DNA of 64,000 nt from a virus: positions 1 to 64,000 of the IMG/VR virus record IMGVR_UViG_3300020383_000001; one strand, written 5' to 3'. Shown one piece after another: positions 5,565 through 48,069 of this stretch; the first letter of the stretch is position 1, and each line of letters opens with the position of its first letter. The translations under genes and the position numbers were made by a program. The notes below the pieces were generated by a model. The model was not told the origin of the DNA. It was given only the letters and a program-made list of their open reading frames with translations, and searched no databases.

Positions 5565-6578
5565 TTAGCTTAATGCGTATTCAGCATCTTTCATGAGTTG
5601 AGCCAGGTTATCTGAACGCTTGATTACTTTAATTGGTTCACCAGTAATCTCAGTAAGAATGCTACTAAGTAGATCACTATCAGCAATCTCAATTAAGATA
5701 TCGAGATAGTTCTGACGCATATTCTGTACGTAGTTAGGATGACACCAGAATGAATCATGAATGGTAAGAATCTCAAAGCCTTGCTTATGAGCTCTACGCA
5801 CCATTTCACGTACCACATAGCCATCAATGGAATGCGTAACATTAGCGGCTAAACTAATACCAGATTCCATTGGCCGGTTAACGTATGCTTTGTGGGTGAA
5901 CGTAGCATGGTCAAGCTCATCTACTTCAATTTTCTTGGTTTCCTCATCCATGACTGGAACATACGCTGTATGCCCATCAGGAAGCGTCCATGAGTGGTAA
6001 TGAGCATTACCTTGCCAGCAGGACTGGATATCATTCATGACTTCAAGAGCACCGCCTAAGTCTTTCTCAAGCATTTCATTGAAGATTTCAAGCTCTTGAG
6101 TATCCTCACCGAATACAAGCTTAGGCTGCTCTTTTGAGCCATAGAACGTAGTCATAATGGGCTTCTTGAGCTTACTACGAGGAATATCATGTCCAATTTC
6201 TTGGCTCATGTGTTTAGCTACGCGCTCATACACATCCTCACGTTTACCTGTATTAATCAGGTTTACTGAGTGAGCTGTATCGTGACAACCAATCAGACAA
6301 GCCAGTATCTGCAAACCAGATGCTGTAGCATCTAAGCCAATAGGCGTACCGGAAGCGATACCACGTTTAGCATCTTTCCAGGTACGCAACATTTTGGCAT
6401 ACAGAATAGGCTCATCAGCTTCGTTTTCTAAGGCTTCAAGCCCTGACAATGAATGACTATTAAACCAGTTTAAACGCTGTTGCCATGTAAGTTTATCTAA
6501 GCCAAAGTGATTAGCTACTGCAATTTTGATGTATTCAAGTGGAGTAAATTGTTGCATTGGATTTTCCTTATAAATCAA
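5565..6578 (-). CDS. phage RNA polymerase II catalytic subunit (T7-like palm, N4 gp16-like)
   Basis: T7 RNAP motif A (GLDATASGLQIL, compare T7 DGSCSGIQH) and motif C (ILTIHDSFWCHP, compare T7 ALIHDSFGT). Confidence 0.8.
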   Translation of the reverse strand: MIYKENPMQQFTPLEYIKIAVANHFGLDKLTWQQRLNWFNSHSLSGLEALENEADEPILYAKMLRTWKDAKRGIASGTPIGLDATASGLQILACLIGCHDTAHSVNLINTGKREDVYERVAKHMSQEIGHDIPRSKLKKPIMTTFYGSKEQPKLVFGEDTQELEIFNEMLEKDLGGALEVMNDIQSCWQGNAHYHSWTLPDGHTAYVPVMDEETKKIEVDELDHATFTHKAYVNRPMESGISLAANVTHSIDGYVVREMVRRAHKQGFEILTIHDSFWCHPNYVQNMRQNYLDILIEIADSDLLSSILTEITGEPIKVIKRSDNLAQLMKDAEYALS

Positions 6579-6973: not shown

Positions 6974-7333
6974 TTAATACCTCAAAACAAATACTGGTTT
7001 ATCTAGCTTTTTCATCGTATCAATCATGTGCTTAGTGCCTTTGGATTTACCATCCCAAGCGGCTAACAACACATCACTATACTGAGCCATATCAACGTTT
7101 CTGCGGTAACCAGCAGACCTACCGTACAACGCCCAGTTAGCTGGAAATTTACGAAGAGGTAAGTTATTTAATTTAGCTATCTCAATCGCACAAGTATCAG
7201 CTCCAAGAGCCATGCCAGATACTATTTCTAAGCCTTTTTCAATAATATCTCCGGATTGAATAAGACTATTGATAGCATCAATTAAGTCATCAGTGGCCGT
7301 ATAATCACGACCACCTGCAATTAGTAATTTCAT
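6974..7333 (-). CDS. SLOG-family protein (DUF2493 / YspA-like Rossmann fold)
   Basis: Pattern MKLLIAGGRDY...GxALGADxxAIExAK...FPANW..YGRSAGYRRNxxM...WDGKSKGTKHMI matches the DUF2493 consensus as I recall it. Confidence 0.6.
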   Translation of the reverse strand: MKLLIAGGRDYTATDDLIDAINSLIQSGDIIEKGLEIVSGMALGADTCAIEIAKLNNLPLRKFPANWALYGRSAGYRRNVDMAQYSDVLLAAWDGKSKGTKHMIDTMKKLDKPVFVLRY

Positions 7334-8241
7334 AGTTTAACTACCTCTTTCTTGGCAAAGTTAATAAGAGCTTTCTTGTATTCAGTACTCTGGATATTGA
7401 TGTGATAACCCTGTGAATACAGACGACCACGCTTATCGAATTTGTGGGTTAGATAGAACTTATTACCATGATCTAACATCTCATTGTAAACAGTACGAGA
7501 AGCTTGTTTCATTTGGGTAAATTGCTCTTGTTTCTGGAGAGTATCTAATGGTTTATTAGGCAACTCTTCCAATTGCAGTACATGGTAATCAAGACTAAGT
7601 GCTTGGTTATTCATGAGGTTAATTACATCAAGAGCTAATGGCATATCATGATGATTAACTGGAGTACCAAGCAATAGTGATTCACTAAATGAGTAGTACT
7701 GGTAGGCACGGTTATTCATTACCACTATTGGCTTAGATACCATTGGTGGTTGATATCGGATATTAATTAGATGCTGTTTGATTTCATCATCTAACTTCCA
7801 CAAGGGAATAATCATCATCCGGTTTTCATCGTTTAATGTGGCTACTTCAATATCAAACAAGTCATGCTCGCACATGATACCCATCAATTCAGAAGCAGTC
7901 TTAACACCATCAAATATATCTTCAAATCCAAAGGTTGGTGCCATGATACCAGCTACAGATTGCAATGGTTGTGGCTTACCCTCGCGTAATACAACTACCA
8001 TCACACCAAGACAAAAGTTGAGCAAATTATACTCACTTTGAATAAGGTGCTGTTTACGCAATTGCTTGCTTTCATAGCTACTACTAAGTAACCATTTTTC
8101 TATGGACGCAATACAGTCATACACTAGATACATTGTATTGAAGCATGTCTCCAACTCATGCTTAATAAGCTTACGTGCATTTTCTTTGCTGTACTTAAAT
8201 TCTAATACCATTTGTTGTTTCAATAGGTTTTCAGTAGTCAT
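7330..8241 (-). CDS. phage RNA polymerase II N-terminal subunit (N4 gp15-like)
   Basis: Contains FYLTHKFDKRGRLYSQG, matching the T7 RNAP FPYNMDWRGRVYAVS motif; a 303-aa separate subunit fits N4 RNAP II architecture. Confidence 0.7.
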   Translation of the reverse strand: MTTENLLKQQMVLEFKYSKENARKLIKHELETCFNTMYLVYDCIASIEKWLLSSSYESKQLRKQHLIQSEYNLLNFCLGVMVVVLREGKPQPLQSVAGIMAPTFGFEDIFDGVKTASELMGIMCEHDLFDIEVATLNDENRMMIIPLWKLDDEIKQHLINIRYQPPMVSKPIVVMNNRAYQYYSFSESLLLGTPVNHHDMPLALDVINLMNNQALSLDYHVLQLEELPNKPLDTLQKQEQFTQMKQASRTVYNEMLDHGNKFYLTHKFDKRGRLYSQGYHINIQSTEYKKALINFAKKEVVKL

Positions 8242-10218: not shown

Positions 10219-10434
10219 TTAATCTTCACTTAGCTCACGGATACGAGCTTGAATCTGGTTTTCGATGTCAGACTCTTTAAGGTTACGTTTCTCAAGTTCA
10301 GCTTTATACTTCGCTTGTGAATCGGCGTAGTAGACCTTAGATGTATTACCAACAGCCATTGATGCAACGTGAGCTGCACGGAATAACTCATAGAAAGTAC
10401 CAAACAAAGCGCCAAGCATCTTAAAGAAGTTCAT
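10219..10434 (-). CDS. hypothetical protein, first gene of the leftward early block
   Basis: Listed ORF; followed by a terminator. Confidence 0.4.
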   Translation of the reverse strand: MNFFKMLGALFGTFYELFRAAHVASMAVGNTSKVYYADSQAKYKAELEKRNLKESDIENQIQARIRELSED

Positions 10435-10760
10435 AGTATTCTCCTAGTAATTAGTAGCAGTATTGCCGTTAGATAGACGACGAGGAACGAGGAGTCTTAG
10501 TGTAAGGTGGGGTAGGGTCTGATAAGAGTAAATGGCAGATTAGACCCCGGGGGGTATTCCGATTTTATTTAGCTCAGAAGAGACAGTACTGCTACCGTAC
10601 TTAATTATGAAAAAATTACCCTATGCAAAATTGTCTCAAAATATAATAAAAATGTGGGATATTTGCGGCCTATTTAAGCCACTGTAAGCTTTTCTTCCTT
10701 GGTTTGATGAAGTATGCTCAATTTTATTTTATTGGCTTAAAATCGCTTTAAGGAGCTTGT

Positions 10761-10979
10761 ATGGGTAAGAAGATTCTACCGGCTTATATTGTACGTATGA
10801 AAGATGAACTGTATGCGTTAGATGATAAGCTGTCGTTAGCCGAGGAGTTCCGTGAGACTCATATATTTAGTTCCTTGGCTCAAGGGGAGCAGAACTTATT
10901 AAATCAGCAGATAAAGCATATGAGAAGTTATGCTGATGTACTGGCTAAGAGGATTGAATTAGCAGAAGCTAGGAAATAG
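10761..10979 (+). CDS. hypothetical protein (72 aa)
   Basis: Listed ORF; GGAG 8 nt upstream; terminator follows. Confidence 0.4.
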   Translation: MGKKILPAYIVRMKDELYALDDKLSLAEEFRETHIFSSLAQGEQNLLNQQIKHMRSYADVLAKRIELAEARK

Positions 10980-10996: not shown

Positions 10997-11019
10997 AAAA
11001 AACACCCTTGGGTGTTTTT
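10997..11019. terminator. bidirectional rho-independent terminator
   Basis: AAAAACACCC-TTG-GGGTGTTTTT: a perfect 10-bp stem flanked by an A-run and a T-run. Confidence 0.55.
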
Positions 11020-11165
11020 CTGCATAAGCCCGCAAGCGGTAGGATTGATATTAGTTGATAGTAGAGAAGGCGAAGCCCAGGACAGGAGGATAGGCTGGGG
11101 GCGAATGAAATGAGTTGGAAGGTCGGCAGTCATCCGACAAGTCTTTTGGGTAGTCTTATATTGTT

Positions 11166-11399
11166 AATCATCTGTGAGGATCGTTAATGTATGAGCCTAT
11201 ATGGGTGTATTTAGCTCATGGTTAAGCCAATGAGTAAGGTATGTAATCATAGATGATTCTGATAAAGGTAAATTAGCGATAATCACCAGTGATTACTCTA
11301 TGTGGCTAATCATCTATGAGGATCGCTAAAATATGAGCCTTGAACTTTGTTTTTGGATCATCTATGATTCGTTTTACCATTCTCATGATCACAGGTGAT
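11166..11399. promoter_or_regulatory. array of six 14-bp palindromic operator-like sites (AATCAY-NN-RTGATT) plus two 33-bp direct repeats
   Basis: Sites at 11166, 11245, 11281, 11308, 11357 and 11388; direct repeats AATCATCTGTGAGGATCGTTAATGTATGAGCCTAT and AATCATCTATGAGGATCGCTAAAATATGAGCCTTG; the last palindrome overlaps the start of the HTH gene. Confidence 0.45.
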
Positions 11400-11754
11400 A
11401 ATAATGCTAGTAATCCAACAGCCTAGAAACAAGTTCACAAAGGTAAGCAGACAAGTATTGTTCAATAAAGAGTTAAGCCTTGGTGCCAAGGTATTGTACA
11501 GTACACTATGTTCACTGAAGCCAGGGCAGAACTATACTGATAATTACTTGATTAAAGCTTTGGACATCTCTAAGCCAACACTTACAAGATGGAAAGCTGA
11601 ACTCAAGAAAGAAGACTTAGTGTTGATTAAACAAGTTCATAGGAATGTATTCTTTACCTTTGTTGGTTTACCAGATTACCCGGCTAGTAGATTGTATGCA
11701 GAGTACCAAGTACATAAAAAGATACTTGAAGAAGGCGAAGTGTTTGAAGATTGA
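11395..11754 (+). CDS. helix-turn-helix DNA-binding protein (alternative start ATG 11404)
   Basis: LGAKVLYSTLCSL...YLIKALDISKPTLTRWKAEL resembles a winged-helix HTH; sits directly downstream of the palindrome array. Confidence 0.45.
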   Translation: MIIMLVIQQPRNKFTKVSRQVLFNKELSLGAKVLYSTLCSLKPGQNYTDNYLIKALDISKPTLTRWKAELKKEDLVLIKQVHRNVFFTFVGLPDYPASRLYAEYQVHKKILEEGEVFED

Positions 11755-11780
11755 TAAATACTTAATATAGCCTATATACT

Positions 11781-11811
11781 AAACCCATCTAGTAAAACAG
11801 GTGGGTTTTTT
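11781..11811 (+). terminator. rho-independent terminator/attenuator immediately before the next start codon
   Basis: AAACCCA-N14-TGGGTTTTTTAT, 2 nt before the ATG at 11814. Confidence 0.45.
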
Positions 11812-11813
11812 AT

Positions 11814-12560
11814 ATGTCCAATACAAGTACAGGTCTACAAACAATTCCTGACCATAAAGTTCCATTGACCAAGAATGAGTTTAAACAAGCTTTACCTAAA
11901 CAGGTTAGGGGAGCTGTATCGGACCAGTTAGTTAATGGGGTTAATCAATTATTAAATGATCCTGAGTTAGCTGAGAACTATAGAGATAACTTATTGGGTT
12001 ATGTAAGTGTACTACAAGATGGCAAGTATAAGCTTACTGACTACATGAATGCTGTACGGTACGTAAGCCATAAGTTGTTAGGTGACTCAAATATTCAGGC
12101 TTATTCTAAGACCTTCCCAGACCGTATTGCTCGGTTTCAAGCAGATGGTAAAGACGCTAAAGCAATTAGTAGCTTTGTAGCAGCCTACAACAAAACCAAG
12201 CTTGTTAATGCTATTTTTGAGCAGACACTTATTCCTACTCATATTTTGAATGCTGACTTACACCAGAAAGCTATCAATGTGCAGGCAGAACTCATGATGA
12301 CTGCTAATAGTGAAAAGGTACGCTGTGAAGCTGCTAACAGTTTGTTGAGCCACTTGAAGCCACCAGAAACTAAGCAAGTTCAGTTGAATGTGAACCATGA
12401 GGTTAAAGAGGGCTCTGCGATTGATGAACTACGTAAAGCTACTGAGGAATTGGCAAAGCAGCAACGGGAAATGATCGCTAGTAAGCAAATGACTGCACAG
12501 CAAATTGCCCATTCAAACATTATAGAAGGTGAGGTAGAAGATGCAGAGTTTTCCGGATAA
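11814..12560 (+). CDS. putative terminase small subunit
   Basis: Position immediately upstream of, and overlapping, the large terminase; no motif. Confidence 0.3.
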   Translation: MSNTSTGLQTIPDHKVPLTKNEFKQALPKQVRGAVSDQLVNGVNQLLNDPELAENYRDNLLGYVSVLQDGKYKLTDYMNAVRYVSHKLLGDSNIQAYSKTFPDRIARFQADGKDAKAISSFVAAYNKTKLVNAIFEQTLIPTHILNADLHQKAINVQAELMMTANSEKVRCEAANSLLSHLKPPETKQVQLNVNHEVKEGSAIDELRKATEELAKQQREMIASKQMTAQQIAHSNIIEGEVEDAEFSG

Positions 12561-14169
12561 TGCCGTAGCGTCAGAAGAAATCATTAAAACTAAAACCGTA
12601 GAGGAATGGCTTAATGGTGTAAGCTACCAAGATGATACTGATTATGTACCTGGTGAGTTTGCCTTATTGTTCATTAACTTCATCAAGATGGTTAATGGGG
12701 GGGAAGGAGAGGAAAACAAAACACCGGTACTGCATTACAGAATGTTAGATCAGGTGGCGGGTAAAGAAACCAATATTGCAAATATGGTTCACCGGGGGGC
12801 TGCTAAAACTACAGTACTGGGTGAGTACTTGTTTCTGTATATTGCTACCTACGGAGGTATTCCAGATTTTGGCAGAATACCTTTGGCCATTTACGTATCA
12901 GACAGCATCGATAACGGTGTTAAAAATATGCGAAAAAACTTAGAGTTCCGTTGGGAAGAGTCAGAGTTTTTGCAGAAGTATGTTCCATACACTAAGTTCA
13001 CAGATATTCGATGGGAATTTAGGAATATTGATGGACAGAAGTTTATCGTAAAAGGGTACGGAGCCAAAACAGGTGTACGTGGTGCTAAAGAGATGGGTAA
13101 GCGTCCTTACTTAGCTGTACTCGATGACTTGATATCGGACGAAGATGCTAGATCACCAACGGTGATCGCAAGCATCGAGGACACGGTATATAAGGCAATT
13201 GATTACGCACTACATCCTACCCACTATAAAATCATTTGGTCGGGTACTCCCTTTAACGCCAAAGATCCATTGTATAAAGCAGTTGAATCCGGAGCCTGGA
13301 AAGTAAATGTATACCCGGTATGTGAGAAGTTCCCTTGTAGTAAAGAGGAATTCCGGGGATCTTGGCCAGATCGTTTTACTTACGAGTACGTCAAGAAGAA
13401 ATATGATAAAGCCCTCAAGGCTGGCAAGATTGATACTTTTAATCAGGAGCTCATGTTAAGAATCATGTCTGATGAAGATCGCATGATTGAAGATTGTGAT
13501 ATACGTTGGTATAGGCGAAAGGACCTTATTGCTAACAGGTCTAGTTTTAACTTCTATATTACCACTGACTTTGCTACTTCAGAAAATACAGCCAGTGACT
13601 ACAGTGTAATTGTAGTTTGGGCCATAAATTCCCAAGGTGACTGGTTCTTAGTAGATGGTATGTGTAAGCGGCAGCTTATGGATAAGAACATAGATGCCTT
13701 ATTCAAACTGGTACAAAAGTACCGCCCAATGAGCGTAGGTATAGAAATTACTGGGCAACAAAAAGGCTTTGTCTCCTGGATTCAAAGTGAAATGATGAGA
13801 CGAAATGTTTGGTTTACTATGGCTTCATCTAATAACAGTAAAGAGCCCGGTATTCGCCCTAATACCAATAAAATGGAGCGATTTAATGTAGTAGTTCCTT
13901 GGATTAAATCTGGTCGAGTTAAGTTCCCTAAAGAAATGGAACAAACTGATCTAATGGTAGAAATTTTAGATGAACTAAAACTAGCTACACCTAAAGGTTT
14001 TAAATCTAAACATGATGATGCTATTGATAACATTTCTATGTTGCCTTTATTAGGGGCCTGGAAGCCTTCAGAGTCTGCAGGAGACTGGAGCAAACAAGAG
14101 GATGATATGTGGGCCATAGATACTGATGATGACTCATCTGTATCTTCACTGGACTCTTATATTGTTTGA
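12541..14169 (+). CDS. terminase large subunit
   Basis: Walker A HRGAAKTT, Walker B LAVLDDLISDE, and a C-terminal nuclease-like acidic region; synteny with the N4 late block. Confidence 0.75.
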   Translation: MQSFPDNAVASEEIIKTKTVEEWLNGVSYQDDTDYVPGEFALLFINFIKMVNGGEGEENKTPVLHYRMLDQVAGKETNIANMVHRGAAKTTVLGEYLFLYIATYGGIPDFGRIPLAIYVSDSIDNGVKNMRKNLEFRWEESEFLQKYVPYTKFTDIRWEFRNIDGQKFIVKGYGAKTGVRGAKEMGKRPYLAVLDDLISDEDARSPTVIASIEDTVYKAIDYALHPTHYKIIWSGTPFNAKDPLYKAVESGAWKVNVYPVCEKFPCSKEEFRGSWPDRFTYEYVKKKYDKALKAGKIDTFNQELMLRIMSDEDRMIEDCDIRWYRRKDLIANRSSFNFYITTDFATSENTASDYSVIVVWAINSQGDWFLVDGMCKRQLMDKNIDALFKLVQKYRPMSVGIEITGQQKGFVSWIQSEMMRRNVWFTMASSNNSKEPGIRPNTNKMERFNVVVPWIKSGRVKFPKEMEQTDLMVEILDELKLATPKGFKSKHDDAIDNISMLPLLGAWKPSESAGDWSKQEDDMWAIDTDDDSSVSSLDSYIV

Positions 14170-38079: not shown

Positions 38080-41000
38080 ATGGTTGACCAAACTGATCCT
38101 TCCAGTACCCCAATTATGGAAGAAAATACTACAGCTGCTTCTTTAACAAAAGAAAAACAAAAAACAGTGCGTGAAAATTTTAATGAAAAAGCTAAGGCAG
38201 CAGCTAATATACAGCTTCAGAAAAAATTAGAGTTAGATCGTGAAAGCACAATTAGAAGTATTTATGTAGACCCAGATAAAACTGATGAAGCTGACTTTAT
38301 TCTGAATGGTAACCCAGCGCTTACTGTTGCAGAACGTAGATATATTCTTGCTAACTCAAAACGTAAGAAAGCCCAGAACCAATTAAGTGAAACTATTCGC
38401 TTACAGGATACTGCTCGCAGTGTTGGGGAAATGGCAGGGGATACTGCTATTTCTTTGGGTAAAGGTGCTGTCAATCTAGCTGGTGGTTTTTATGGTTTAG
38501 CTAACGTACTGTCACAAGGCTTGAATGCTACAGTAGGTACAGCAGGAAGAACAATCGGTTCATTGCTTGAAGACGGTTCTATATTTGATGAAGAAGGTAA
38601 TCTAGAAGCTGGTTTATTCAATACTGCTGGTATTGATACTGCTCTTAACTTATCAAAAGATTTTGTAGATACCCAAGATATTTTAAGTGGATTTCAGTCA
38701 GAAGGTTTACGTAATACCCGGGATGCAGTAAATCTAAGAGTAAGAGAAGCCAGACAACAAAGACTTACTGAGTTAAAAGAGCAGGGCATTGATCCAACTG
38801 AATTAGCAAACCAACTAAAAGTCGAAGGCACTGGTTTCACAGAGACCTTGGGTGCTATGTGGGATAACCCACAGCTAATTGTTGATGGTTTACTGGAAAC
38901 AGGACCTGAGTTCCTAGGTGGTGGTCTTGTTAAGAAAAGCGCTGATACCTTTCTTACTGGCTTAAAGAAATTAATTAAAAAAGATGGAAGTGGTGTAGCA
39001 GAAAAAGCCGCTGAAGGCATCTCAGATGCCACAGCAGGTACAATCAATATTGTAGCAGGTGAAGCAGGCAATACAGCTAACCAAGCTGCTGCTTCTGTGC
39101 TTAGGATGTCTGATGAAGATGTAATGGAATCCAAAGCAGCAGAGGAATTGCTTAAAGAAAATCCTGATTACACTCCAGAACAGATTAAACGAATATTGGC
39201 AGATCAAGCCAGTATGACAGCATTTGCTATTGCTGGTCCCTTATCAGTACTTACAGGTAAAGTAACTGGTGCAGCTAAACTAGAGGGTAGTGTATTACAG
39301 CGTCTTTCAGGACAGAAAGGTAATATAGCCGATAAAACGGCAGGAGTACTTGGCCAAACTGTGAGCGAAGGCTCAGAAGAGCTAGTTCAAGGTGTTACTG
39401 GCGCAGTTGCGGAAAATGTAGCTGTCGGTGAAGCACTCGACAAAAAGGATTACAACCCTGTCGAAGGAGCAGGTGAACAAGCCGCAGCAGGTTTAGTTAT
39501 TGGCTCTGCTTTAGGTGGTTCGCTAGGTACTGTACAAAAAACTGTAGAAGCAATTAAAGATGGTAGCACTATTGCTGGTGGTGCTGCTGAAACTGTACAG
39601 GATAGTAAAGATATTCAGGCCGGCAATTATGAAGAAGTCATAAAACGAGCTGCAGAAAATGACCAACCTGACAGAGCTTTGGCTGCTTTGACTGATGGGC
39701 GGGTACTACAAAAAGTACGCAACAAAAGTCAAGAAGATCCTGATGCCGTAATCACACATGGCAAAGCAATATCTAAGCAATACAACCGTAGTATTGCTAT
39801 GCTTCAAGAATTACACAAAGCAGAATTAGAAGCCAAAGACAATAAAGATACTAAGGCTGTTAAACGTATCCAACGCCGTAAGCAACAAATAGAGCAAACT
39901 CTTGTTAAGTATAAAAACAAAGAGATTAAGGTAATTGATTACCTAATTGGCAACAAAGCCCAAAGTGCTGAAGCTAAAGCTACTATAGATAAACTGTCTT
40001 CTACTGAACAAGAAGTAGAATTGTCAGATGACGAAATCAACAATGCTATTAAGTATTTTGGCTCAGACCCTAGTGCAGTTGATACAGAGTCATTAGCTAA
40101 ATTCGAGACAGTGTCAGAAAGATTAAACCCAGCCCAAAAACAACGCTTGAGTGACATTAAAACAGTTAAGCAAGCTGAGAATAGTCTTGCAGAAGTAGCT
40201 GGTAAAAAATCTATTGATGAGGTTAACTCAGAAGTACTTACTGGCAAATCAAAACAGTTTGTTGGTTTACGCACCCATCAGTCTGCAGTCAACAATGCTT
40301 TAAAAATCCAAGACAAAGAAACTGCAGATGAAGCCGTAGGTAATATGCGTTCATTTGTTGAACAGAGAATACGCAAAGCTAATTTGGCTAAACGTATTTT
40401 TGACGGAATCAAAAACAATAACCCAGAGGTATCAACTTTACAGGAGAAATTCAAAGAAGAATTCTCTTATGGTTCTGCCAATGATAAAGGTGCTTTTATT
40501 GACCAACGCAGTGGTAAATTAGTTCGCACTTTAGGGGCTGAAGCAGAGTTAGCTAAAGCTTACTTCAATAATGTACAAGGAGCTTATCAAAGTACGTTTA
40601 ACGAAGAAGTGGAAGCACCAAAATACGATGTCAATTTACCAAGTCAAGATAGTCTGGTACCTGATGTTGAGACGGATATTCCGGAAGCAGAAGTAACTAC
40701 TGAAAATCTAGAAACAGAGGTAGAAACAGATTTAACTCCTGAGACTGCAGAATCAGTCGATACTCCTAAACAAGATGTTGAGCCAGTTACACAAGAAACA
40801 GAGGTCCCTCAAGAAGACACTGAAAAAGCTCCTTCTATGGCTCAAGAAGTCTTACAGGAGCTGGAAACAACAGAGACTAAAGAGCAGCTCAAGAATCGTA
40901 CTGATACGTATGTAGAACGTGTGTTCTCAGAAAGAGTTCTTAAACGTGGTACTCGAATAAAAACTAAAGAGCTATCCAAGATCCGAAAAGATATTGGTGA

Positions 41001-44000
41001 CACCCTGAAAAATGTCATCGACCAACGAGATGATATTACCCCTACTCAGGTTAAAGAAGCAGTGGATACTGTTGCACAAGGTTATACAGACCGTGCAGAA
41101 GATAACGTAGATACAAATAATAAATCTGGCTTGTACCGTTATGGGGTTAAGTTAGCTGAGAAAGCTAATGCTAAGTTCTCGTTGCAGACTCGCTTAATGG
41201 AAGCATCAAGAAATCTTAATAGCTTGTTCCGTATTAAACCAGGCCCTAAAGGTTTCCTATCTAGTAGGCTTAATCCTATTGATTGGTTGGTATCACGTAA
41301 AGAATTGAGTCAGCTTCCAACTGGTGACAGTAATTTCTTGATTGCCATGAAAGAGTATCGTGACGTATTTCAAGAAGCCATCAATAAACCAGAAGTATTT
41401 GGTAATTATTTCCGTAAAGCCAAAGACTCAAAAGATAATCCAATTACTTGGTTACAGACTCGAACCAAGAGACAGACAAATAACTTTACTTCTACTGGCT
41501 TAGAACAAAATGTAGTAGATGCTATGTTCGTAGCTGGTATGGAAGCTATTGGACGTACTCTCAACAAACATGAAAATAGTGAAGACGATATACGAGGCAT
41601 TGTTGGTGATAACAATACAAATGCTGATGATAGTATCACTGCTGCACAGTATAAAAACTTTGCTTACATTGGAATAAACAAAGCAACTATCATTGATCAA
41701 ATTGGTAACAATGTATTAAATCTTCTTGGCTTACAAGAGAAGCAATATATCGATCAAGATGTTATTGATGAGAACGGTAATATCACCGGCAAAGAACGTA
41801 TCTACTTAGATCCAACTAATCAGGAGAGACTGGCAGTTGCTTTAGGTAATTTTGTCTTATCTGGTTTAGCAAGTACTGGAGCAATTGAGATTACTTTATA
41901 CCCTAACGAGGTAATTGAGAAAGCTAAACTTAAAGAGAATAAGTTGAGCATTCCTCAGCTATTGGAAGCTCGTTTTAAAGAGAAGCAAACTGATTATACA
42001 GAAGTTGCTTTTGTTAAGCCTGTATCCACTGGCACCTCAAGTTCTGATTTGCACCCGATGATTCGTAAGATTACTGGGGCATTCTCAAATATGTCGCCTA
42101 ACTTTTTTGATGAGACCTTTGGTTTAGATAGTGAACCTAAAGAGCCATCTTTGGAGCCTATTAAACTCAAGCAGACGAATTATAAGAAGACCCTTCAAAA
42201 GATACCTGCTCGGGTTAAAAAAATCTTACAACGCCATTCAGAGCGTCCTATTCAAACCAAGGAAGGTATTTCTGCTTTGGTTTCTAATCTGTTTGATGTG
42301 ACGTTTGATTCTTCAATCACACTGGGTACCAAAGAGGATGACATGATACGGAACAAACTCCGTATTGGTCTATTTGGTTTCACTGATTTAGATACTATGC
42401 CGGCTGATTTGGTACACCATAAAAAAGCTAAGAATGATTCTATTCTACGTGATATCACCTTGAACGTAGATTGGATGAATAGTGTCAAAGACAAAGTATT
42501 TTACGTGCCTCATGAATTATGGCGTAACAGTCGTTTTGGTATCGCTTCTGCTGTGGCTAATATGCAGAACAGTAAATTAGCTCGCCATATGTTTTCTTAC
42601 TCAGACCAGAGAGTTGAAATAGATCTGATAAATGGTGATGAGGAAACTAACTTAGGTTTCAGATTAGCACTAGCTCAACACCTAGGAATAAAAATAGACA
42701 AAAACACTATTGATACTTCTCTTGAGCAACTCGAAGAGCTAGAAAATGACCCAACTATTTTAGAGGGTCTGCAGGTACTTTCTGAGATTGAGCAGGGTGA
42801 AGTCACTGCAGATACAGCTAATAAATTACTGGCTGCAATAGAGAAAGCAGGTAATGAAAACTTTCAATCTCTTGAGGGGCTAATAAATCTTAAGCGTTAC
42901 CTAGAAGCCAAAGATAATGGTAAACCTTTTACCACAGATATTGGTATCGAGGTTGATGGCGTAAACAATGGTGTAGCTATCAGCCTAATTCAGTTTGGTG
43001 CTGACAATCCAGATACGACTAAGATGATGCTAGAAGCAACCGGCGTATATATGGATGGAAAGTTTACTAACTTTTCTGAATGGCGCAATGCTGGTGAAGA
43101 AACCAAACAAGACTTGTATGAGATGTTCAGTGAACAATGGGGCAAGTTAGTAGAAGCTGATGCAAATAGGCTTGGTGAAGCTAGTTTACTACCTTACTGG
43201 AAAGTCTTAATAGGCGATATGCTTGATAACAGAGGTCTAGTAACCAAACTTGGTAGAGACCTGGCTAAACCTATTGTAATGACTGGTAACTATTTAGCAG
43301 GCTACAGTAGCCAATTCAGCAGCTTCAGTGATGAAGTGTATGAAAAGATGCTTATCAAGTTGGTTAACACTGAATCACAAGATTTCATTGGTACGTTTGT
43401 AAACTTGATGGAACGATTGGAAGAACCTCTAAATGCCAAGCAATTAAAGACTTTAGCTGAAAACCCTAAAAAGTTGTCACTAAGCCCAAAACAAGCAGGC
43501 AAACTGTATAGATCATTAGCTACTGTATATTTTGGACCGATGAAAGATGCTTCTGAAATTTCATTTGGGACCATCAGAAAAAGAATGCAGGATTTTGCTT
43601 TCTCTTACCAAGTAGGCTTTGAGACTTGGTTTGCTTTCTATGAAAAAGCCCAGGAAGCTAAAAGAAATGAGCTTGGTATTGATAAAGGTAAACCATTACC
43701 TAAAGACGTAGAAGCTGAGTTGTATGAGTCAACCATACAATACGCACCAGTCATGCCTTCTTATTTCAGTGGAGATATGACAGAAGCGTTAGAAATGTAC
43801 AAGACAGCTCGTGATCGTCTAACAAGCAAGGATACCCGTGTAATACTTAAGTTTGGTGAGGGTAACCAAAATATACGGTCTATTAGACCACTAGCTTCAG
43901 CAGAAGCTGGAAAGGTTATTGATGGTATTCCTTACAATTTTAATAAAAGTGTCTCAGATCAACCTAGTTATCGTAAGTTTACAAATCCCGGTGTTGCGCC

Positions 44001-47000
44001 TGGTGCCCGGGCAGTACAGTCTCTTGATGGTACAACAATGCTGCTTTTCCTTGAGAAAATCGGAGCATTGAATATTCATGATGCTGTCATGCTTCCTGTA
44101 GATAAAGCATTCTCAAGCACCAAAGCAATGAACGAAGCCTTCTTAGAAGCTATGGATTATTCTTTACCTATGGCAGGTGGCACAATGCTTAATAAAGCAT
44201 TTACTGTCATACGTAAAGCTAAAACACGTTTGGATCCTAATCAATCTAACTTAGCTGTTATTGCTAAGAGATTAGGCGTTAAACCAACTAAAAAGAAAAC
44301 AGCCGAGCAAGTGCTGTACGCTAAGATTTTTAATGCCGGCAGAAATCTAAATGTTGCTAATGCGTCCCGTAAAGAGGTACTATCCCGCATTTCCAGCCTT
44401 GGTCAGTACCATTTACCTAATGGTGAATTATATGTTCAAGAGAAGCCTACAGGGGGCCCTGAAATTGATTTGAATACTCTTGGATCAGAAGATTCAGTAT
44501 TCAGTGATTTTAATCCAACAACAGTAGATACGATTACTCCAACCAACAGTGGAGCTTTATTTGGTAAGTTGGCTCAATTAGACGGTGACGCATTACCTGA
44601 ATCACATTATGAGCAGTTGTCCAGTGTGCTCGATATCGTTGTTAATCGAGTAATAGACCCACTTAAAGTCCGTATACAGAACATGAGTCCTCGGGCTGTT
44701 GGCAGGTTCCAAGCAGATAGCAAAACCGTTGATTTAAAACTTACTGGTAGTAACGCAAACCAAGGTAATAAATCAAACGCTGAGGTCTATGTTCACGAAT
44801 TAGTCCATGCTGTTACAGAAGAGGGTTTTCGTAATAAGCCAAGAGCTCGGGCAGAAGTCAAAAAAGTATTTACTGCAGTACGTAACGCAGGGATGAGACT
44901 GTATCCTGATAATCCTGAGTTGCTGTTACTTAGCAATCCTTTAGCAGCATCTGATGTACAGCGTCGCAATGCTAAAGAAGTTTGGGATTATGTAATGGAC
45001 AACAACCAGGGTACCTACCTGGACGAGTTTATTGCACATGGTTTAACTAATGAGTTAATGCTTACAGCATTGAAGAACCCAGAGGTAGACAAAGAATTAA
45101 GTAAGATTCGGAGAACATTTAACTTAACTACTAAGTCTGATGCCACTTTTACAAGAGTAGTTGTGGGTGCTTTAGATATGGTTCTGAATATCTTTTCTGA
45201 CTTACTTAATGTGTTTGCTGACAAGTACTTTAAAACAACAGATATGAAAGCTGATGCCCGAGTATTTGCTTTAGCTCAGTATTTGGGGGAAAAAGAAGCA
45301 GAGCACACAAGCAAATTTTGGAAAGCCATCGAAAAAGTAGAAGGCTTTAATGCTGTCAGTAACAAGCAAGTTAGAGAGTGGATTATTGAGCCACTTATTA
45401 AGTACGCCGAGAAATCTAAAATATCTCAAATCAAACAACTAAGTACTATCATTGGTAGTGTTGTTACAGATCGCGTTACCCCAGAAGGCTTTAGTGCGAC
45501 TGTGAAAATGGTAATGAACCGAACCAGTATCAGCAAAGACAACCTTGCTGCTTCTTTAATGCGTGAATTACAGGGGCAAAAGAAAGATAACCGTGGATTG
45601 TATAAGTTACTTAGATTATCAGGTAAACACGTAGACCAAGCTCGTAAGCATACAAGTAATGCTGTTAAATCTGTTGCCCGAGGTTATTTCAAAGTTGCTC
45701 CTACCAGAGATCAAAGTGAAGCAATTACACGCATAGGATTTAAAACAGACCTGTCTTCGTTACTTTTGGATGACATGGCTTTACGTAATATGACTCCAGA
45801 GCAGGTAGATGAATACTTATCTAACCCAGCTAATCAAAATAGTTTTAAGCGTAATGCTGAATTGATAAAAGACTTAGTTGGCTCAGGTGATGTAAGAGCT
45901 CGTGAAATTAAAAAGCTTGAAGATTCTATTCGTAATGAGTTTGGTGCCAATGCTCAGTACTACATAATGCAGGCACGTAGCCTAGGTAGCTTAATGGCTA
46001 ACGGTATCCCATTGTTAGAAGACTCGTTAAGAAACGCTCATGCTATTGCTAATTTAGCTGGTAGAAGCTCTATGCAGCCTGTAGGTGACTTAGCCATAGC
46101 AGAATTACTGATTGACCAACTTGCTACTTTGCATGGCTTAGATAACAGTTCAGATACTGATTTACGTAACTTCTATGAAATCTTTTCTGAGGAAGCCTCA
46201 CAGCCAGATAATGACATAGTAAATAATGGTGTCATTAAAACATTACAGATGTACGCTCAATTTAAGCGAGAGTCTTTGGATACCTTATTTGAGGGTAATC
46301 CTATGCTGACTACTAAGGGCTATATAAAAGAAATTACTAACCCGAATATTGGGTTGGCATTTGCTCAAACTCAGGAAGAACGCAAAGCTCTTGAGAAACA
46401 GGGGTACCAGTTTATTAAGACAGTTGGTAAAGACTCCTCAGACTTTAACCAAAGAAAGACTCATATCTATCGCAGTAAAGTAGCAGGTATGAATACTTAC
46501 AATAAGGCAATCCTGTCTATAACAGGTATGCGTAAATCTGGTACAACTTTATATGATGGTCATGTAATTAGTAATACTGGGGACCCTAGCTTAGCTTCAA
46601 TTGTAGATGTGAAGCGTGTACGTCGAATTAATGAAAACAGATATAAAAATAATCAGTATGGGTTACAGGAAGGGGTGTTATTGCAGCCTGTACTAAATCC
46701 AGCCGGGGATATTGTAGATTATCGCTATGTGATGGCTGAGGCTACTAGAAGACAGTTGTTGGATAGAAATGACGACTTTGGTGAAGTCATCGGGGGAATG
46801 TATGGAAACATGGTTGATAAACGCAATAGCGTGGAAATTAATAACAGTGCTATCAAGTACTTGAAAGATTTCTACGATAATGCAGATGACCTGGATACTG
46901 AATGGGTAGAGCTCAGTCCTACTTCTGATGATAAAGATGCTAGAGAATTTTGGAATATGCTTCCAGAAAGCACTCGTCAATATGCTAAAGAAGTCTGGAA

Positions 47001-48069
47001 TAACAAGCCAGTGATGATCCGGAAAGAGGATTATCGTTTGGTTACTGGTTTCCGTAAGTGGAGTATCTCCAGTATCGATACGGAAAGAATGCGTAAATCA
47101 CAAAATCAAATGATGCGCTTAGCCGGTGAGTACATAACCAAAGCAGTTAATCGCCCGGGGGTACGGATTACTGAAAATGTAATCCAAGAATTGGTGCGTA
47201 TGGCTAAAGACACGATTGTAGTGAAATCTGGTGGTGTGCTGTTAGCCAACATATTAAGTAATGCTGTTGTTCTACGTACTGAGGGTATCCCAGTAAGTAA
47301 ACTGATTAAGTATCAAGCAGAGGGTTGGAAATACGCGGCAGAGTATAAAAAAATGGATCAAGAACTTAGTCAACTACAAATAGAATTGGCTAGTGATCCA
47401 CGAATGGGCCGTACTAAGAAAAAACGTAAAGAAGCTCGTATTGCTCAGCTTGGTAAAGAAATGCAGCTTAGCCCAGTAAGAGACCTCATTGATGAAGGCA
47501 TGTTTCAAACAATTGTTGAAGATATTGAGTTGGAAACAGAGTCCTTCACTTATAAGAGTCAATTAGAACAATGGGTTAGTCCAATTACAGATAAGGTGCC
47601 TCAAAGTCTTAAAGACATAGGCAATACTCTATTCATGACCCATGATACTAAGTTGTACCGAGCGTTATTGGATGCAACTCAACTATCTGACTTTGTTGCT
47701 AGATACGCACTGCATAAGCATCAATTAGAAAACGGCATGGAGTACAATGAATCGGTAACAAGAATTGTTGATACTTTTGTGGATTATGATTCACCTACTC
47801 ATGTATCAATACAGTACTTGAATGATATGGGTGTATTAATGTTTACCAAGTTCTTTATTCGTATTCAGAAAGTGATACTAAGACAAATTAGAGAAAATCC
47901 TGGTAATGTGTTGTCGTTTGTGTTGATGCAACAACTATTAGGAATTGATGCACCAGATATCTTTGAAACAATTGCATTAGACCCTGGCAATTTGGGTAAT
48001 AGGTTATATAGCCCGTTCGGAGCATTAGAGGATGTAATGCAATTGCATCTGCTAAACGTGTCACCATAA
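38080..48069 (+). CDS. virion-encapsidated RNA polymerase (N4 gp50-like giant vRNAP)
   Basis: 3329 aa; central T7-like motifs: A (IEVDGVNNGVAISLIQFG), B (LAKPIVMTGNYLAGY), C (ALNIHDAVMLPVD); last gene of the late block, as in N4. Confidence 0.85.
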   Translation: MVDQTDPSSTPIMEENTTAASLTKEKQKTVRENFNEKAKAAANIQLQKKLELDRESTIRSIYVDPDKTDEADFILNGNPALTVAERRYILANSKRKKAQNQLSETIRLQDTARSVGEMAGDTAISLGKGAVNLAGGFYGLANVLSQGLNATVGTAGRTIGSLLEDGSIFDEEGNLEAGLFNTAGIDTALNLSKDFVDTQDILSGFQSEGLRNTRDAVNLRVREARQQRLTELKEQGIDPTELANQLKVEGTGFTETLGAMWDNPQLIVDGLLETGPEFLGGGLVKKSADTFLTGLKKLIKKDGSGVAEKAAEGISDATAGTINIVAGEAGNTANQAAASVLRMSDEDVMESKAAEELLKENPDYTPEQIKRILADQASMTAFAIAGPLSVLTGKVTGAAKLEGSVLQRLSGQKGNIADKTAGVLGQTVSEGSEELVQGVTGAVAENVAVGEALDKKDYNPVEGAGEQAAAGLVIGSALGGSLGTVQKTVEAIKDGSTIAGGAAETVQDSKDIQAGNYEEVIKRAAENDQPDRALAALTDGRVLQKVRNKSQEDPDAVITHGKAISKQYNRSIAMLQELHKAELEAKDNKDTKAVKRIQRRKQQIEQTLVKYKNKEIKVIDYLIGNKAQSAEAKATIDKLSSTEQEVELSDDEINNAIKYFGSDPSAVDTESLAKFETVSERLNPAQKQRLSDIKTVKQAENSLAEVAGKKSIDEVNSEVLTGKSKQFVGLRTHQSAVNNALKIQDKETADEAVGNMRSFVEQRIRKANLAKRIFDGIKNNNPEVSTLQEKFKEEFSYGSANDKGAFIDQRSGKLVRTLGAEAELAKAYFNNVQGAYQSTFNEEVEAPKYDVNLPSQDSLVPDVETDIPEAEVTTENLETEVETDLTPETAESVDTPKQDVEPVTQETEVPQEDTEKAPSMAQEVLQELETTETKEQLKNRTDTYVERVFSERVLKRGTRIKTKELSKIRKDIGDTLKNVIDQRDDITPTQVKEAVDTVAQGYTDRAEDNVDTNNKSGLYRYGVKLAEKANAKFSLQTRLMEASRNLNSLFRIKPGPKGFLSSRLNPIDWLVSRKELSQLPTGDSNFLIAMKEYRDVFQEAINKPEVFGNYFRKAKDSKDNPITWLQTRTKRQTNNFTSTGLEQNVVDAMFVAGMEAIGRTLNKHENSEDDIRGIVGDNNTNADDSITAAQYKNFAYIGINKATIIDQIGNNVLNLLGLQEKQYIDQDVIDENGNITGKERIYLDPTNQERLAVALGNFVLSGLASTGAIEITLYPNEVIEKAKLKENKLSIPQLLEARFKEKQTDYTEVAFVKPVSTGTSSSDLHPMIRKITGAFSNMSPNFFDETFGLDSEPKEPSLEPIKLKQTNYKKTLQKIPARVKKILQRHSERPIQTKEGISALVSNLFDVTFDSSITLGTKEDDMIRNKLRIGLFGFTDLDTMPADLVHHKKAKNDSILRDITLNVDWMNSVKDKVFYVPHELWRNSRFGIASAVANMQNSKLARHMFSYSDQRVEIDLINGDEETNLGFRLALAQHLGIKIDKNTIDTSLEQLEELENDPTILEGLQVLSEIEQGEVTADTANKLLAAIEKAGNENFQSLEGLINLKRYLEAKDNGKPFTTDIGIEVDGVNNGVAISLIQFGADNPDTTKMMLEATGVYMDGKFTNFSEWRNAGEETKQDLYEMFSEQWGKLVEADANRLGEASLLPYWKVLIGDMLDNRGLVTKLGRDLAKPIVMTGNYLAGYSSQFSSFSDEVYEKMLIKLVNTESQDFIGTFVNLMERLEEPLNAKQLKTLAENPKKLSLSPKQAGKLYRSLATVYFGPMKDASEISFGTIRKRMQDFAFSYQVGFETWFAFYEKAQEAKRNELGIDKGKPLPKDVEAELYESTIQYAPVMPSYFSGDMTEALEMYKTARDRLTSKDTRVILKFGEGNQNIRSIRPLASAEAGKVIDGIPYNFNKSVSDQPSYRKFTNPGVAPGARAVQSLDGTTMLLFLEKIGALNIHDAVMLPVDKAFSSTKAMNEAFLEAMDYSLPMAGGTMLNKAFTVIRKAKTRLDPNQSNLAVIAKRLGVKPTKKKTAEQVLYAKIFNAGRNLNVANASRKEVLSRISSLGQYHLPNGELYVQEKPTGGPEIDLNTLGSEDSVFSDFNPTTVDTITPTNSGALFGKLAQLDGDALPESHYEQLSSVLDIVVNRVIDPLKVRIQNMSPRAVGRFQADSKTVDLKLTGSNANQGNKSNAEVYVHELVHAVTEEGFRNKPRARAEVKKVFTAVRNAGMRLYPDNPELLLLSNPLAASDVQRRNAKEVWDYVMDNNQGTYLDEFIAHGLTNELMLTALKNPEVDKELSKIRRTFNLTTKSDATFTRVVVGALDMVLNIFSDLLNVFADKYFKTTDMKADARVFALAQYLGEKEAEHTSKFWKAIEKVEGFNAVSNKQVREWIIEPLIKYAEKSKISQIKQLSTIIGSVVTDRVTPEGFSATVKMVMNRTSISKDNLAASLMRELQGQKKDNRGLYKLLRLSGKHVDQARKHTSNAVKSVARGYFKVAPTRDQSEAITRIGFKTDLSSLLLDDMALRNMTPEQVDEYLSNPANQNSFKRNAELIKDLVGSGDVRAREIKKLEDSIRNEFGANAQYYIMQARSLGSLMANGIPLLEDSLRNAHAIANLAGRSSMQPVGDLAIAELLIDQLATLHGLDNSSDTDLRNFYEIFSEEASQPDNDIVNNGVIKTLQMYAQFKRESLDTLFEGNPMLTTKGYIKEITNPNIGLAFAQTQEERKALEKQGYQFIKTVGKDSSDFNQRKTHIYRSKVAGMNTYNKAILSITGMRKSGTTLYDGHVISNTGDPSLASIVDVKRVRRINENRYKNNQYGLQEGVLLQPVLNPAGDIVDYRYVMAEATRRQLLDRNDDFGEVIGGMYGNMVDKRNSVEINNSAIKYLKDFYDNADDLDTEWVELSPTSDDKDAREFWNMLPESTRQYAKEVWNNKPVMIRKEDYRLVTGFRKWSISSIDTERMRKSQNQMMRLAGEYITKAVNRPGVRITENVIQELVRMAKDTIVVKSGGVLLANILSNAVVLRTEGIPVSKLIKYQAEGWKYAAEYKKMDQELSQLQIELASDPRMGRTKKKRKEARIAQLGKEMQLSPVRDLIDEGMFQTIVEDIELETESFTYKSQLEQWVSPITDKVPQSLKDIGNTLFMTHDTKLYRALLDATQLSDFVARYALHKHQLENGMEYNESVTRIVDTFVDYDSPTHVSIQYLNDMGVLMFTKFFIRIQKVILRQIRENPGNVLSFVLMQQLLGIDAPDIFETIALDPGNLGNRLYSPFGALEDVMQLHLLNVSP

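Follow-up and report, generated by a model that had tools for sequence, protein, structure and literature searches.

Lambda Cro with its operators OR1-3 and the P22 proteins Mnt and Arc exemplify small DNA-binding proteins that limit their own expression through several pseudo-palindromic operators, at least one of which covers a core promoter element. The initiators of iteron replicons likewise repress their own promoters, by way of a dyad site; RepE of F, RepA of pPS10 and RepA of pSC101 are winged-helix proteins with such a dyad on the own promoter and more copies of the site nearby. N4-like phages serve as a model of a transcription cascade that employs three RNA polymerases. To our knowledge, they are not known for classical repressor-operator modules, and we know of no defined origin of replication or packaging signal for them. 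Here we describe an array of six palindromic sites upstream of a gene for a small helix-turn-helix (HTH) protein. It lies in a stretch of 64,000 nt (positions 1 to 64,000 of the IMG/VR virus record IMGVR_UViG_3300020383_000001, in the following called the window), which comes from an uncultured marine N4-like podophage of the family Schitoviridae. With a probability of roughly 0.6, we read the locus as a unit in which a dimeric winged-helix protein represses its own promoter via a helically phased operator array. This reading draws on the computed sites with their significance and conservation, on their overlap with a predicted promoter, on the change of the motif together with the protein and on the protein fold.

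In its function, the system would resemble the small autorepressors of phages or plasmids that have multiple operators, and the fold of the protein is closest to the N-terminal domains of RepA_N and DnaD-type proteins. With Cro, Mnt and Arc it shares a small, probably dimeric DNA-binding protein, several pseudo-palindromic operators and at least one operator on a core promoter element, which would make expression self-limiting. Unlike these repressors, the protein is an initiator-type winged helix, its six sites extend over 233 bp in a fixed helical phasing, and there is no partner repressor, divergent promoter or second genomic target. The likeness to F RepE, pPS10 RepA and pSC101 RepA consists in the dyad on the own promoter and the copies nearby. 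However, the proteins of the iteron replicons possess two winged-helix domains and bind as monomers to direct-repeat iterons by an AT-rich region and DnaA boxes, whereas here a single domain, dyads at all sites and no conserved unwinding element are found. The N-terminal domains of RepA_N initiators are dimers that bind several semi-palindromic repeats (iterons) near or in their own gene (PMC7145576), and their combination of a winged helix, an N-terminal strand and a C-terminal helix resembles that of the HTH protein. Unlike the RepA_N initiators (RepA of the S. aureus plasmids pSK41 and pTZ2162 and of the Vibrio cholerae PLE), the HTH protein has neither a C-terminal domain nor a Pfam RepA_N match, and its sites lie upstream of the gene and over the promoter, without convergence on a poly-A tract. 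On sequence as well as on domain architecture, it is not a member of RepA_N.

Dyad sites and their conservation

The six sites are 12-bp dyads with the consensus ATCAY-NN-RTGAT and lie within 233 bp (11167-11399). The preliminary description of this DNA had listed six palindromes in about 230 bp; this number stands, with the restriction that two of them are imperfect by one mismatch each. The exact 12-mer ATCAYNNRTGAT occurs four times in the window (11246, 11282, 11357 and 11388), each time in the array, against a chance expectation of 0.31 copies per 64 kb, and four copies were reached in none of 100 dinucleotide-preserving shuffles. The two one-mismatch copies in the array (11167-11178 and 11309-11320) read TGAG for TGAT, and 13 further one-mismatch matches are scattered through the window at background level. 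A genome-wide motif scan detected no further exact copy, neither in the window nor in the 8,959 nt of the genome beyond it.

The first site, S1 (ATCATCTGTGAG, 11167..11178), carries one mismatch and is followed by the extension GATCGTTAA; S2 (ATCATAGATGAT, 11246..11257) is perfect, as is S3 (ATCACCAGTGAT, 11282..11293), which bears the extension TTAGCGAT on its left. In the case of S4 (ATCATCTATGAG, 11309..11320), one mismatch is again followed by an extension, GATCGCTAA. The perfect site S5 (ATCATCTATGAT, 11357..11368) includes in its right half the hexamer TATGAT, and S6 (ATCACAGGTGAT, 11388..11399), also perfect, overlaps the Shine-Dalgarno sequence AGGTGAT and the predicted initially transcribed region. 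All six sites are dyads, and two of them lie inside direct repeats of 34 nt on the plus strand: copy a (11165..11198) holds S1 and copy b (11307..11340) holds S4 and reaches into the -35 hexamer. The copies match at 30 of 34 positions (88%), or with 75% identity in a longer version of 63 nt, in good agreement with the near-identical direct repeats holding two sites that had been reported before. Together with their extensions, S3 and S4 form a large inverted repeat (11273..11329, 57 bp) with 23-nt arms that are 11 nt apart, an arrangement also present in the related contigs L079, L081 and L001. Furthermore, S1, S3 and S4 bear a second conserved element, GATCGYTAA, which shows a parallel change to AGTGWTAAA in L081 and L002.

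Five relatives of the HTH protein, with 58-64% identity, were found, all of them in marine metagenomes. Upstream of their genes, the sites lie at -236, -157, -121, -94 and -48 from the ATG, and at -16 in two lineages. These positions agree within 1-2 nt; variation is seen at the central dinucleotide and at the Y/R positions, and the spacers are diverged. In the window phage itself, S1, S2, S3 and S4 are at -237, -158, -122 and -95. Mean column identity is 0.84 in the sites and 0.91 at the specified half-site positions compared to 0.73 in the spacers (block permutation p ~0.015). With 0.97, S5 is the most conserved site. The position of S4 is kept in all five relatives, that of S3 in the four whose contigs reach it and that of S1 in L079, L081 and L001. 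S2 is kept in L079 and L081 and degenerate in L001; in L002 it has been deleted together with the S1-S2 spacer, so that both are dispensable. S6 is restricted to the window phage and L079.

It has to be considered whether the sites might be a product of chance or of low sequence complexity. The region is indeed AT-rich (34.9% G+C), and the right half of S6 is at the same time the Shine-Dalgarno sequence. However, the shuffles described above did not once reach four copies, the Tandem Repeats Finder reported no simple or low-complexity array in the region, and the positions are kept in five diverged lineages. By the shuffles and by the positional and column conservation, this explanation is excluded.

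A protein-based scan of IMG/VR gave no relative, a tblastn search of 50,697 phage records with the HTH protein gave no match, and a megablast search of the same records with the region revealed no close relative of the window. The 70 loci that were matched with ATCACCAGTGATTAST do not encode a homologue in any case and were rejected as chance matches.

Several independent metagenome assemblies (L004, L006, L007, L008, L083 and L084) start 29-116 nt upstream of the HTH ATG and thus inside the array. In two of these contigs, which represent different lineages, the breaks are at -97 and -98, in the inverted repeat between S3 and S4. Such breaks probably arose in assembly, through the inverted repeats or through strain variation, and are not taken as evidence for a genome end.

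Predicted promoter and a model of self-repression

The start of the HTH gene had been placed at a GTG codon (11395), giving a protein of 119 aa and an overlap of the last site with the start codon. Since ML[IV]IQ forms the start of all homologues and of the public gene calls, the gene most likely starts at the ATG at 11404 (11404..11754, plus strand) and would encode 116 aa; with this revised start, S6 overlaps the Shine-Dalgarno sequence instead.

A sigma70-type promoter of the gene, TTGAAC-17-TATGAT, is predicted by sequence match at 11340..11368 on the plus strand. When both strands were scanned in all six lineages, TTGNNN-16/17 nt-TATGAT was the sole sigma70-like match conserved in position, and no conserved divergent promoter was found inside the array. 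In L001, the promoter TTGACA-16-TATGAT matches at 11 of 12 positions. The right half of S5, the best-conserved site, is the -10 hexamer of this predicted promoter.

In the model that we favour, the 116-aa protein would bind the six dyads upstream of its own gene, probably as a dimer. If transcription is taken to start about 7 nt after the -10 hexamer, the centres of S5 and S6 come to lie at about -13 and +18, both of which are repressing positions, and those of S4, S3, S2 and S1 at about -61, -88, -124 and -203. Occupancy of S5 would cover the spacer and the -10 hexamer, and occupancy of S6, where this site is present, the initially transcribed region, by which the protein would shut off its own transcription. 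At S1 to S4, further dimers could be loaded cooperatively by looping or wrapping of the DNA, leading to sharper repression. Measured from S1, the centres of S3, S5 and S6 are at 115, 190 and 221 bp, corresponding to 10.95, 18.1 and 21.05 turns (10.5 bp per turn), which places these four sites on one face of the helix. S2 and S4 are located on the opposite face, half a turn off the first set and 63 bp or 6.0 turns apart from each other. The strict conservation of the spacing suggests a higher-order looped or wrapped complex.

Several points weigh against self-repression as the function of the locus. Binding and repression, as well as dimerisation and looping, are inferred here, and the promoter and the transcription start are themselves predictions from sequence. 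A regulator whose only genomic sites are its own has no evident purpose; since the phage genome holds no other sites, the protein would need a further target in the host, or the array itself would be the functional element. In the distant relative L085, the clear palindromes lie upstream of the predicted promoter and not on it. The coincidence of S6 with the Shine-Dalgarno sequence could be partly fortuitous, and the helical phasing, which was spotted post hoc, is only suggestive.

Wider protein family and change of the motif

A profile search of 1.84 billion representative proteins delimits a so far uncharacterised family of small initiator-like winged-helix proteins, with 237 clusters at E <=0.001. 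Most of the listed members are stand-alone proteins of 105-135 aa that align over their full length; longer and weaker relatives carry DnaB_2 or DnaD_N domains. The distant members that we examined are found in N4-like contexts, where the family keeps to a single position: its gene or genes open the rightward, late-oriented block after a long intergenic region. In these relatives, one to four genes separate the HTH gene from the gp69-like gene, and the HTH gene always abuts the intergenic region. For each family locus examined, both a cognate site and a promoter are predicted. N4 itself lacks the family, which occurs in only one of the 50,697 phage records when the relatives are used as query, and in none with the window protein. 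The only cultured carrier is the Alteromonas schitovirus vB_AemP_PT15-A5 with two tandem copies, annotated as 'HTH DNA binding domain protein'. The family is without a characterised member and has a generic annotation in a single phage record. A literature search on the HTH genes of PT15-A5, on the N4 origin and on HTH genes in Schitoviridae yielded nothing relevant. The tandem duplication of PT15-A5 spans 7131-7785 of L086 (OP481051 73130-73784); another one was seen in the metagenomic contig L094 (4613-5342), where the second frame overlaps the end of the first.

The palindromes upstream of the distant members differ from those in the window. In L091, GTGACAAATATGTCAC occurs twice, with a half-site in the spacer of a TTGACT-17-TATTAT promoter, and in L085 GGTCAAATATGACA occurs twice. 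For L093, the palindromes TAGCCACTGGTGGCTA and TAGCCACTGGTGACTA were found, and for PT15-A5 AATATTGCCA and TGGCAAAT. At the protein level, the recognition-helix segment PTLTR[WY]K is present in all six proteins that go with ATCAYNNRTGAT and differs in L085, L091, L093 and PT15-A5. This parallel change of the motif and the adjacent protein is, among the computational arguments, the strongest one for a reading of the sites by the HTH protein and not by a host factor.

The same finding bears on the possibility that the palindromes are real regulatory sites that are bound by another host or phage factor. More than one protein may assemble at the array, as the second element at S1, S3 and S4 (GATCGYTAA or AGTGWTAAA) and the single-copy motif TAGTCTTATATTG beside S1 would allow. 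However, the palindromic motif changes by lineage along with the recognition helix of the adjacent protein, whereas a factor shared by related marine hosts would presumably leave the motif stable. In addition, we saw no resemblance to the consensus of IHF, Fur, CRP, LexA or DnaA in a comparison made by eye only. We regard recognition by a different factor as improbable.

The motif TAGTCTTATATTG (11151..11163, plus strand) abuts S1 and is unique in the window. In the distant relatives L085 and L091, which have different palindromes, it is kept beside the first of these, and it appears in the variants AGTCTTTATTAG and TCTTAATTAG in other relatives. As a repeated phage promoter consensus it was rejected, being unique in the window with no enrichment of near-matches.

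Protein fold and the question of a replication origin

In a Pfam scan with E values up to 0.1, the HTH protein matched only HTH_36, with an E value of 0.0016 that is below the family cut-off; neither RepA_N (PF06970) at E up to 0.1 nor any NCBIfam family was matched. Searches of PHROGs gave weak matches to the N-terminal part of families named 'DnaD-like helicase loader' and 'replication initiation protein'. A confident AlphaFold (AF2) model (pLDDT 87) presents a winged helix that is extended by an additional strand at the N-terminus and a long helix at the C-terminus, so that a sequence-specific DNA-binding domain of the HTH/winged-helix type is indicated by both the sub-threshold HTH_36 match and the model. 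The closest folds are the N-terminal domains of DnaB/DnaD and of RepA_N initiators, and the model has the N-terminal winged-helix fold of DnaD-like proteins. Among PDB sequences, the family profile matched best to RepA (4pta, E 0.0012). The fold fills residues 2-110 of 116, with no C-terminal domain after it and a short acidic tail. Judging from the model, the protein is a stand-alone winged helix, that is, the DNA-binding domain alone.

The preliminary description had left the choice between an autoregulated operator array and iterons. Its first part is supported by the cognate-site behaviour of the motif, by the kept positions in the close relatives, by the promoter overlap and by the change of the motif with the protein, and the second stays open because the fold is initiator-like. 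According to this serious rival explanation, the array is, or also is, a replication origin, the protein is a minimal origin binder of the RepA_N/DnaD type and the dyads are its iterons. It is compatible with autoregulation. The best PDB match of the family profile, the PHROG matches to helicase-loader and replication-initiation families and the longer relatives with DnaB_2 or DnaD_N domains all point in this direction, as does the fact that the gene adjoins its own semi-palindromic repeats, as in many replicons; moreover, the acidic C-terminal tail could recruit a partner. However, the protein ends after its DNA-binding domain without a recruiting C-terminal domain, and its sole Pfam match is the sub-threshold HTH_36, not RepA_N. 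The absence of the family from N4 and from all but one of the 50,697 phage records argues that it is not a core function of N4-like replication, and the tandem paralogues in PT15-A5 and L094 would be unusual for an initiator. An AT-rich unwinding element is not conserved: of the S1-S2 spacers, those of L079, L081 and L001 are AT-rich, that of the window phage is not, and L002 has lost the spacer together with S2. Finally, the best-conserved site is the promoter site S5. Taken together, we consider an origin unlikely. Somewhat more doubtful still is the broader proposal that the winged helix and the phased dyads form a complex that marks an origin, or a switch between replication and late transcription, in the right-subterminal region of marine N4-like phages. 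Should the protein be no more than an autoregulator, the result amounts to routine annotation; if the array is truly an origin, a real gap would be filled.

Clustering of GATC (Dam sites) was tried as an origin signature and rejected, because the four sites of the array are matched or exceeded elsewhere in the window. By eye, L081 and L002 have one GATC site each in the array.

Just upstream of the array there is a GC-rich, purine-rich non-coding element of about 130 nt (11020-11150; 5600-5740 in L001), which is also found upstream in L079, L081 and L002. Its 3' part forms, in four relatives, a stem-loop with the compensatory changes GCAG/CTGC, GCAT/ATGC and GGCT/AGCC (covariation term -2.19, 5 of 15 pairs). 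Rfam gave nothing above noise in this region of the window or in the four relatives, and no conserved open reading frame was seen in the element by eye. An interpretation as hairpin promoters of an N4-type virion RNA polymerase was rejected. Hairpins with a stem of at least 4 bp and a 3-nt loop are missing from the element in the window phage, L079, L081 and L002; in L001, L085 and L093 such hairpins adjoin the first leftward gene, as in N4.

Genome ends and packaging

As a by-product of our analysis, the homology to the left end of N4 allows the genome terminus to be predicted from sequence. Base 1 of the N4 RefSeq record is assumed here to be the physical left end, independently of the annotation of the record. 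The reverse complement of N4 bases 1-160 is collinear with window positions 10428-10620 and with the same spot in the five relatives. The order of elements is shared: the start codon of the first leftward gene, a hairpin, the 13-mer AAGGTGGGGTAGG, which is exact and unique at 10504-10516, and a G run (10541-10546). The N4 hairpin GTTGCGAAGCAAC, which matches the window hairpin in position, is presumably the early promoter P1. When the right end of N4 is joined to its left end, the boundary lies between ...CCCCACCA and AATACTGAAC..., and AATACTGAAC aligns with a conserved AGTACTG at window positions 10585-10592. The whole conserved block AGTACTG...AATTATGA (10585-10615) corresponds in the alignment to the sequence next to the N4 left end. 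Because of this homology, and given that base 1 is the physical left end, we predict the left physical end, or the inner boundary of the right terminal repeat, near 10584/10585. This position is within the divergent intergenic region, about 580 bp to the left of S1.

It had been suggested that in an N4-type genome the termini and terminal repeats would lie at the junction of the early and late blocks. This is roughly right for the lineage of the window (about 10585), but it does not apply to the array and is not a general rule for N4-like phages, since the gp69 junction is internal in the records of N4 and LUZ7, 1.2 kb and 6.3 kb from the right end, respectively. On the basis of sequence comparison, neither the palindromes nor the 34-nt repeats constitute the terminal repeat, and the array has no homology to the N4 end. 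Contig ends were judged to be uninformative as evidence for termini, because assemblies run through direct terminal repeats.

These data also bear on the idea that the array is part of the packaging apparatus, either as a cosB- or pac-like recognition array of the terminase or as the terminal repeat itself. The gp69-like gene, for a putative small terminase, and the large terminase gene lie downstream of the array, which is within about 0.6-0.8 kb of the predicted terminal-repeat boundary. In lambda, the winged-helix protein Nu1 binds repeated R sites just upstream of its own gene, and the locus resembles this cosB/gpNu1 system in that a winged-helix gene is preceded by repeated sites near the terminase genes and a genome end. 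The HTH protein, unlike gpNu1, is no small terminase subunit and lacks conservation across the N4-like phages, and the predicted terminus lies about 580 bp away. The homology to the N4 left end puts the terminus outside the array, and the N4-shared motif AGTACTG...AATTATGA at the boundary would be the candidate recognition site instead. Furthermore, a gp69-like gene is present in 465 phage records and universal in N4-like phages, unlike the HTH gene, which keeps its place beside the intergenic region and not beside gp69, and the self-comparison of the window displays no second copy of the region. A role in packaging appears to be very improbable.

Genome map and neighbouring genes

The circular map has 72,959 nt, of which the window makes up 64,000 nt; the remaining 8,959 nt were taken from a Tara Oceans contig (L095) that was joined to the window. 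With 218,408 nt, L095 is the longest public contig of the window phage and about three times as long as the genome, pointing to a concatemeric or repeated assembly. Two subunits of the N4-type RNA polymerase II are encoded on the minus strand (7330-8241 and 5565-6578), and a protein of 3,329 aa (38080-48069) matches the N4 virion RNA polymerase in position and size range.

The leftward, early-oriented block ends at 10434, and the divergence between early and late genes lies at 10435-10760. The array had been described as sitting exactly at this point; it is in fact 400-730 bp further to the right, with a 72-aa gene and a terminator in between. This gene (10761-10979) opens the rightward block and matches Pfam PF21825 (E 5e-15), a family whose label differs between library copies ('crAss001_48 related protein' versus 'Sequestin'). 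A 155-aa form of the PF21825 gene lies upstream of the HTH gene in L091, and the gene is absent from L001. In the window, it is closed by the hairpin AAAAACACCC-TT-GGGTGTTTTT (10998..11019), an inverted-repeat pair with a T run on either strand. A non-coding stretch of 415 nt follows, of which the palindrome array is the right half.

Behind the array and the HTH gene, a terminator-like hairpin (11781..11808, plus strand) precedes the gp69-like/terminase operon, and its 3' arm covers the Shine-Dalgarno sequence of the gp69-like gene (11814-12560); the large terminase gene (12541-14169) is next. The same order is found in the close relatives, where the gp69-like gene lies immediately downstream of the HTH gene in every contig that extends that way, followed by the terminase gene where this is reached. 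Since terminator-like hairpins are present on both sides, the HTH gene is a monocistronic unit with its own control region, flanked by the predicted right-subterminal region of the genome on one side and the gp69-like/terminase operon on the other. The hairpin at 11781-11808 may act as a terminator and, in addition, control translation or the start of the late operon. At the equivalent place in L001 and L002, hairpins of other sequence were seen by eye, and GCCTATAYACTAA is conserved. In the same stretch (window 11751-11813), a promoter-like sequence TTGATA-18-TATACT, with 10 of 12 matching positions, overlaps the stop codon of the HTH gene. Finally, a tRNA-Met gene (anticodon CAT) was detected at 1021-1096 on the minus strand, in the early or middle block.
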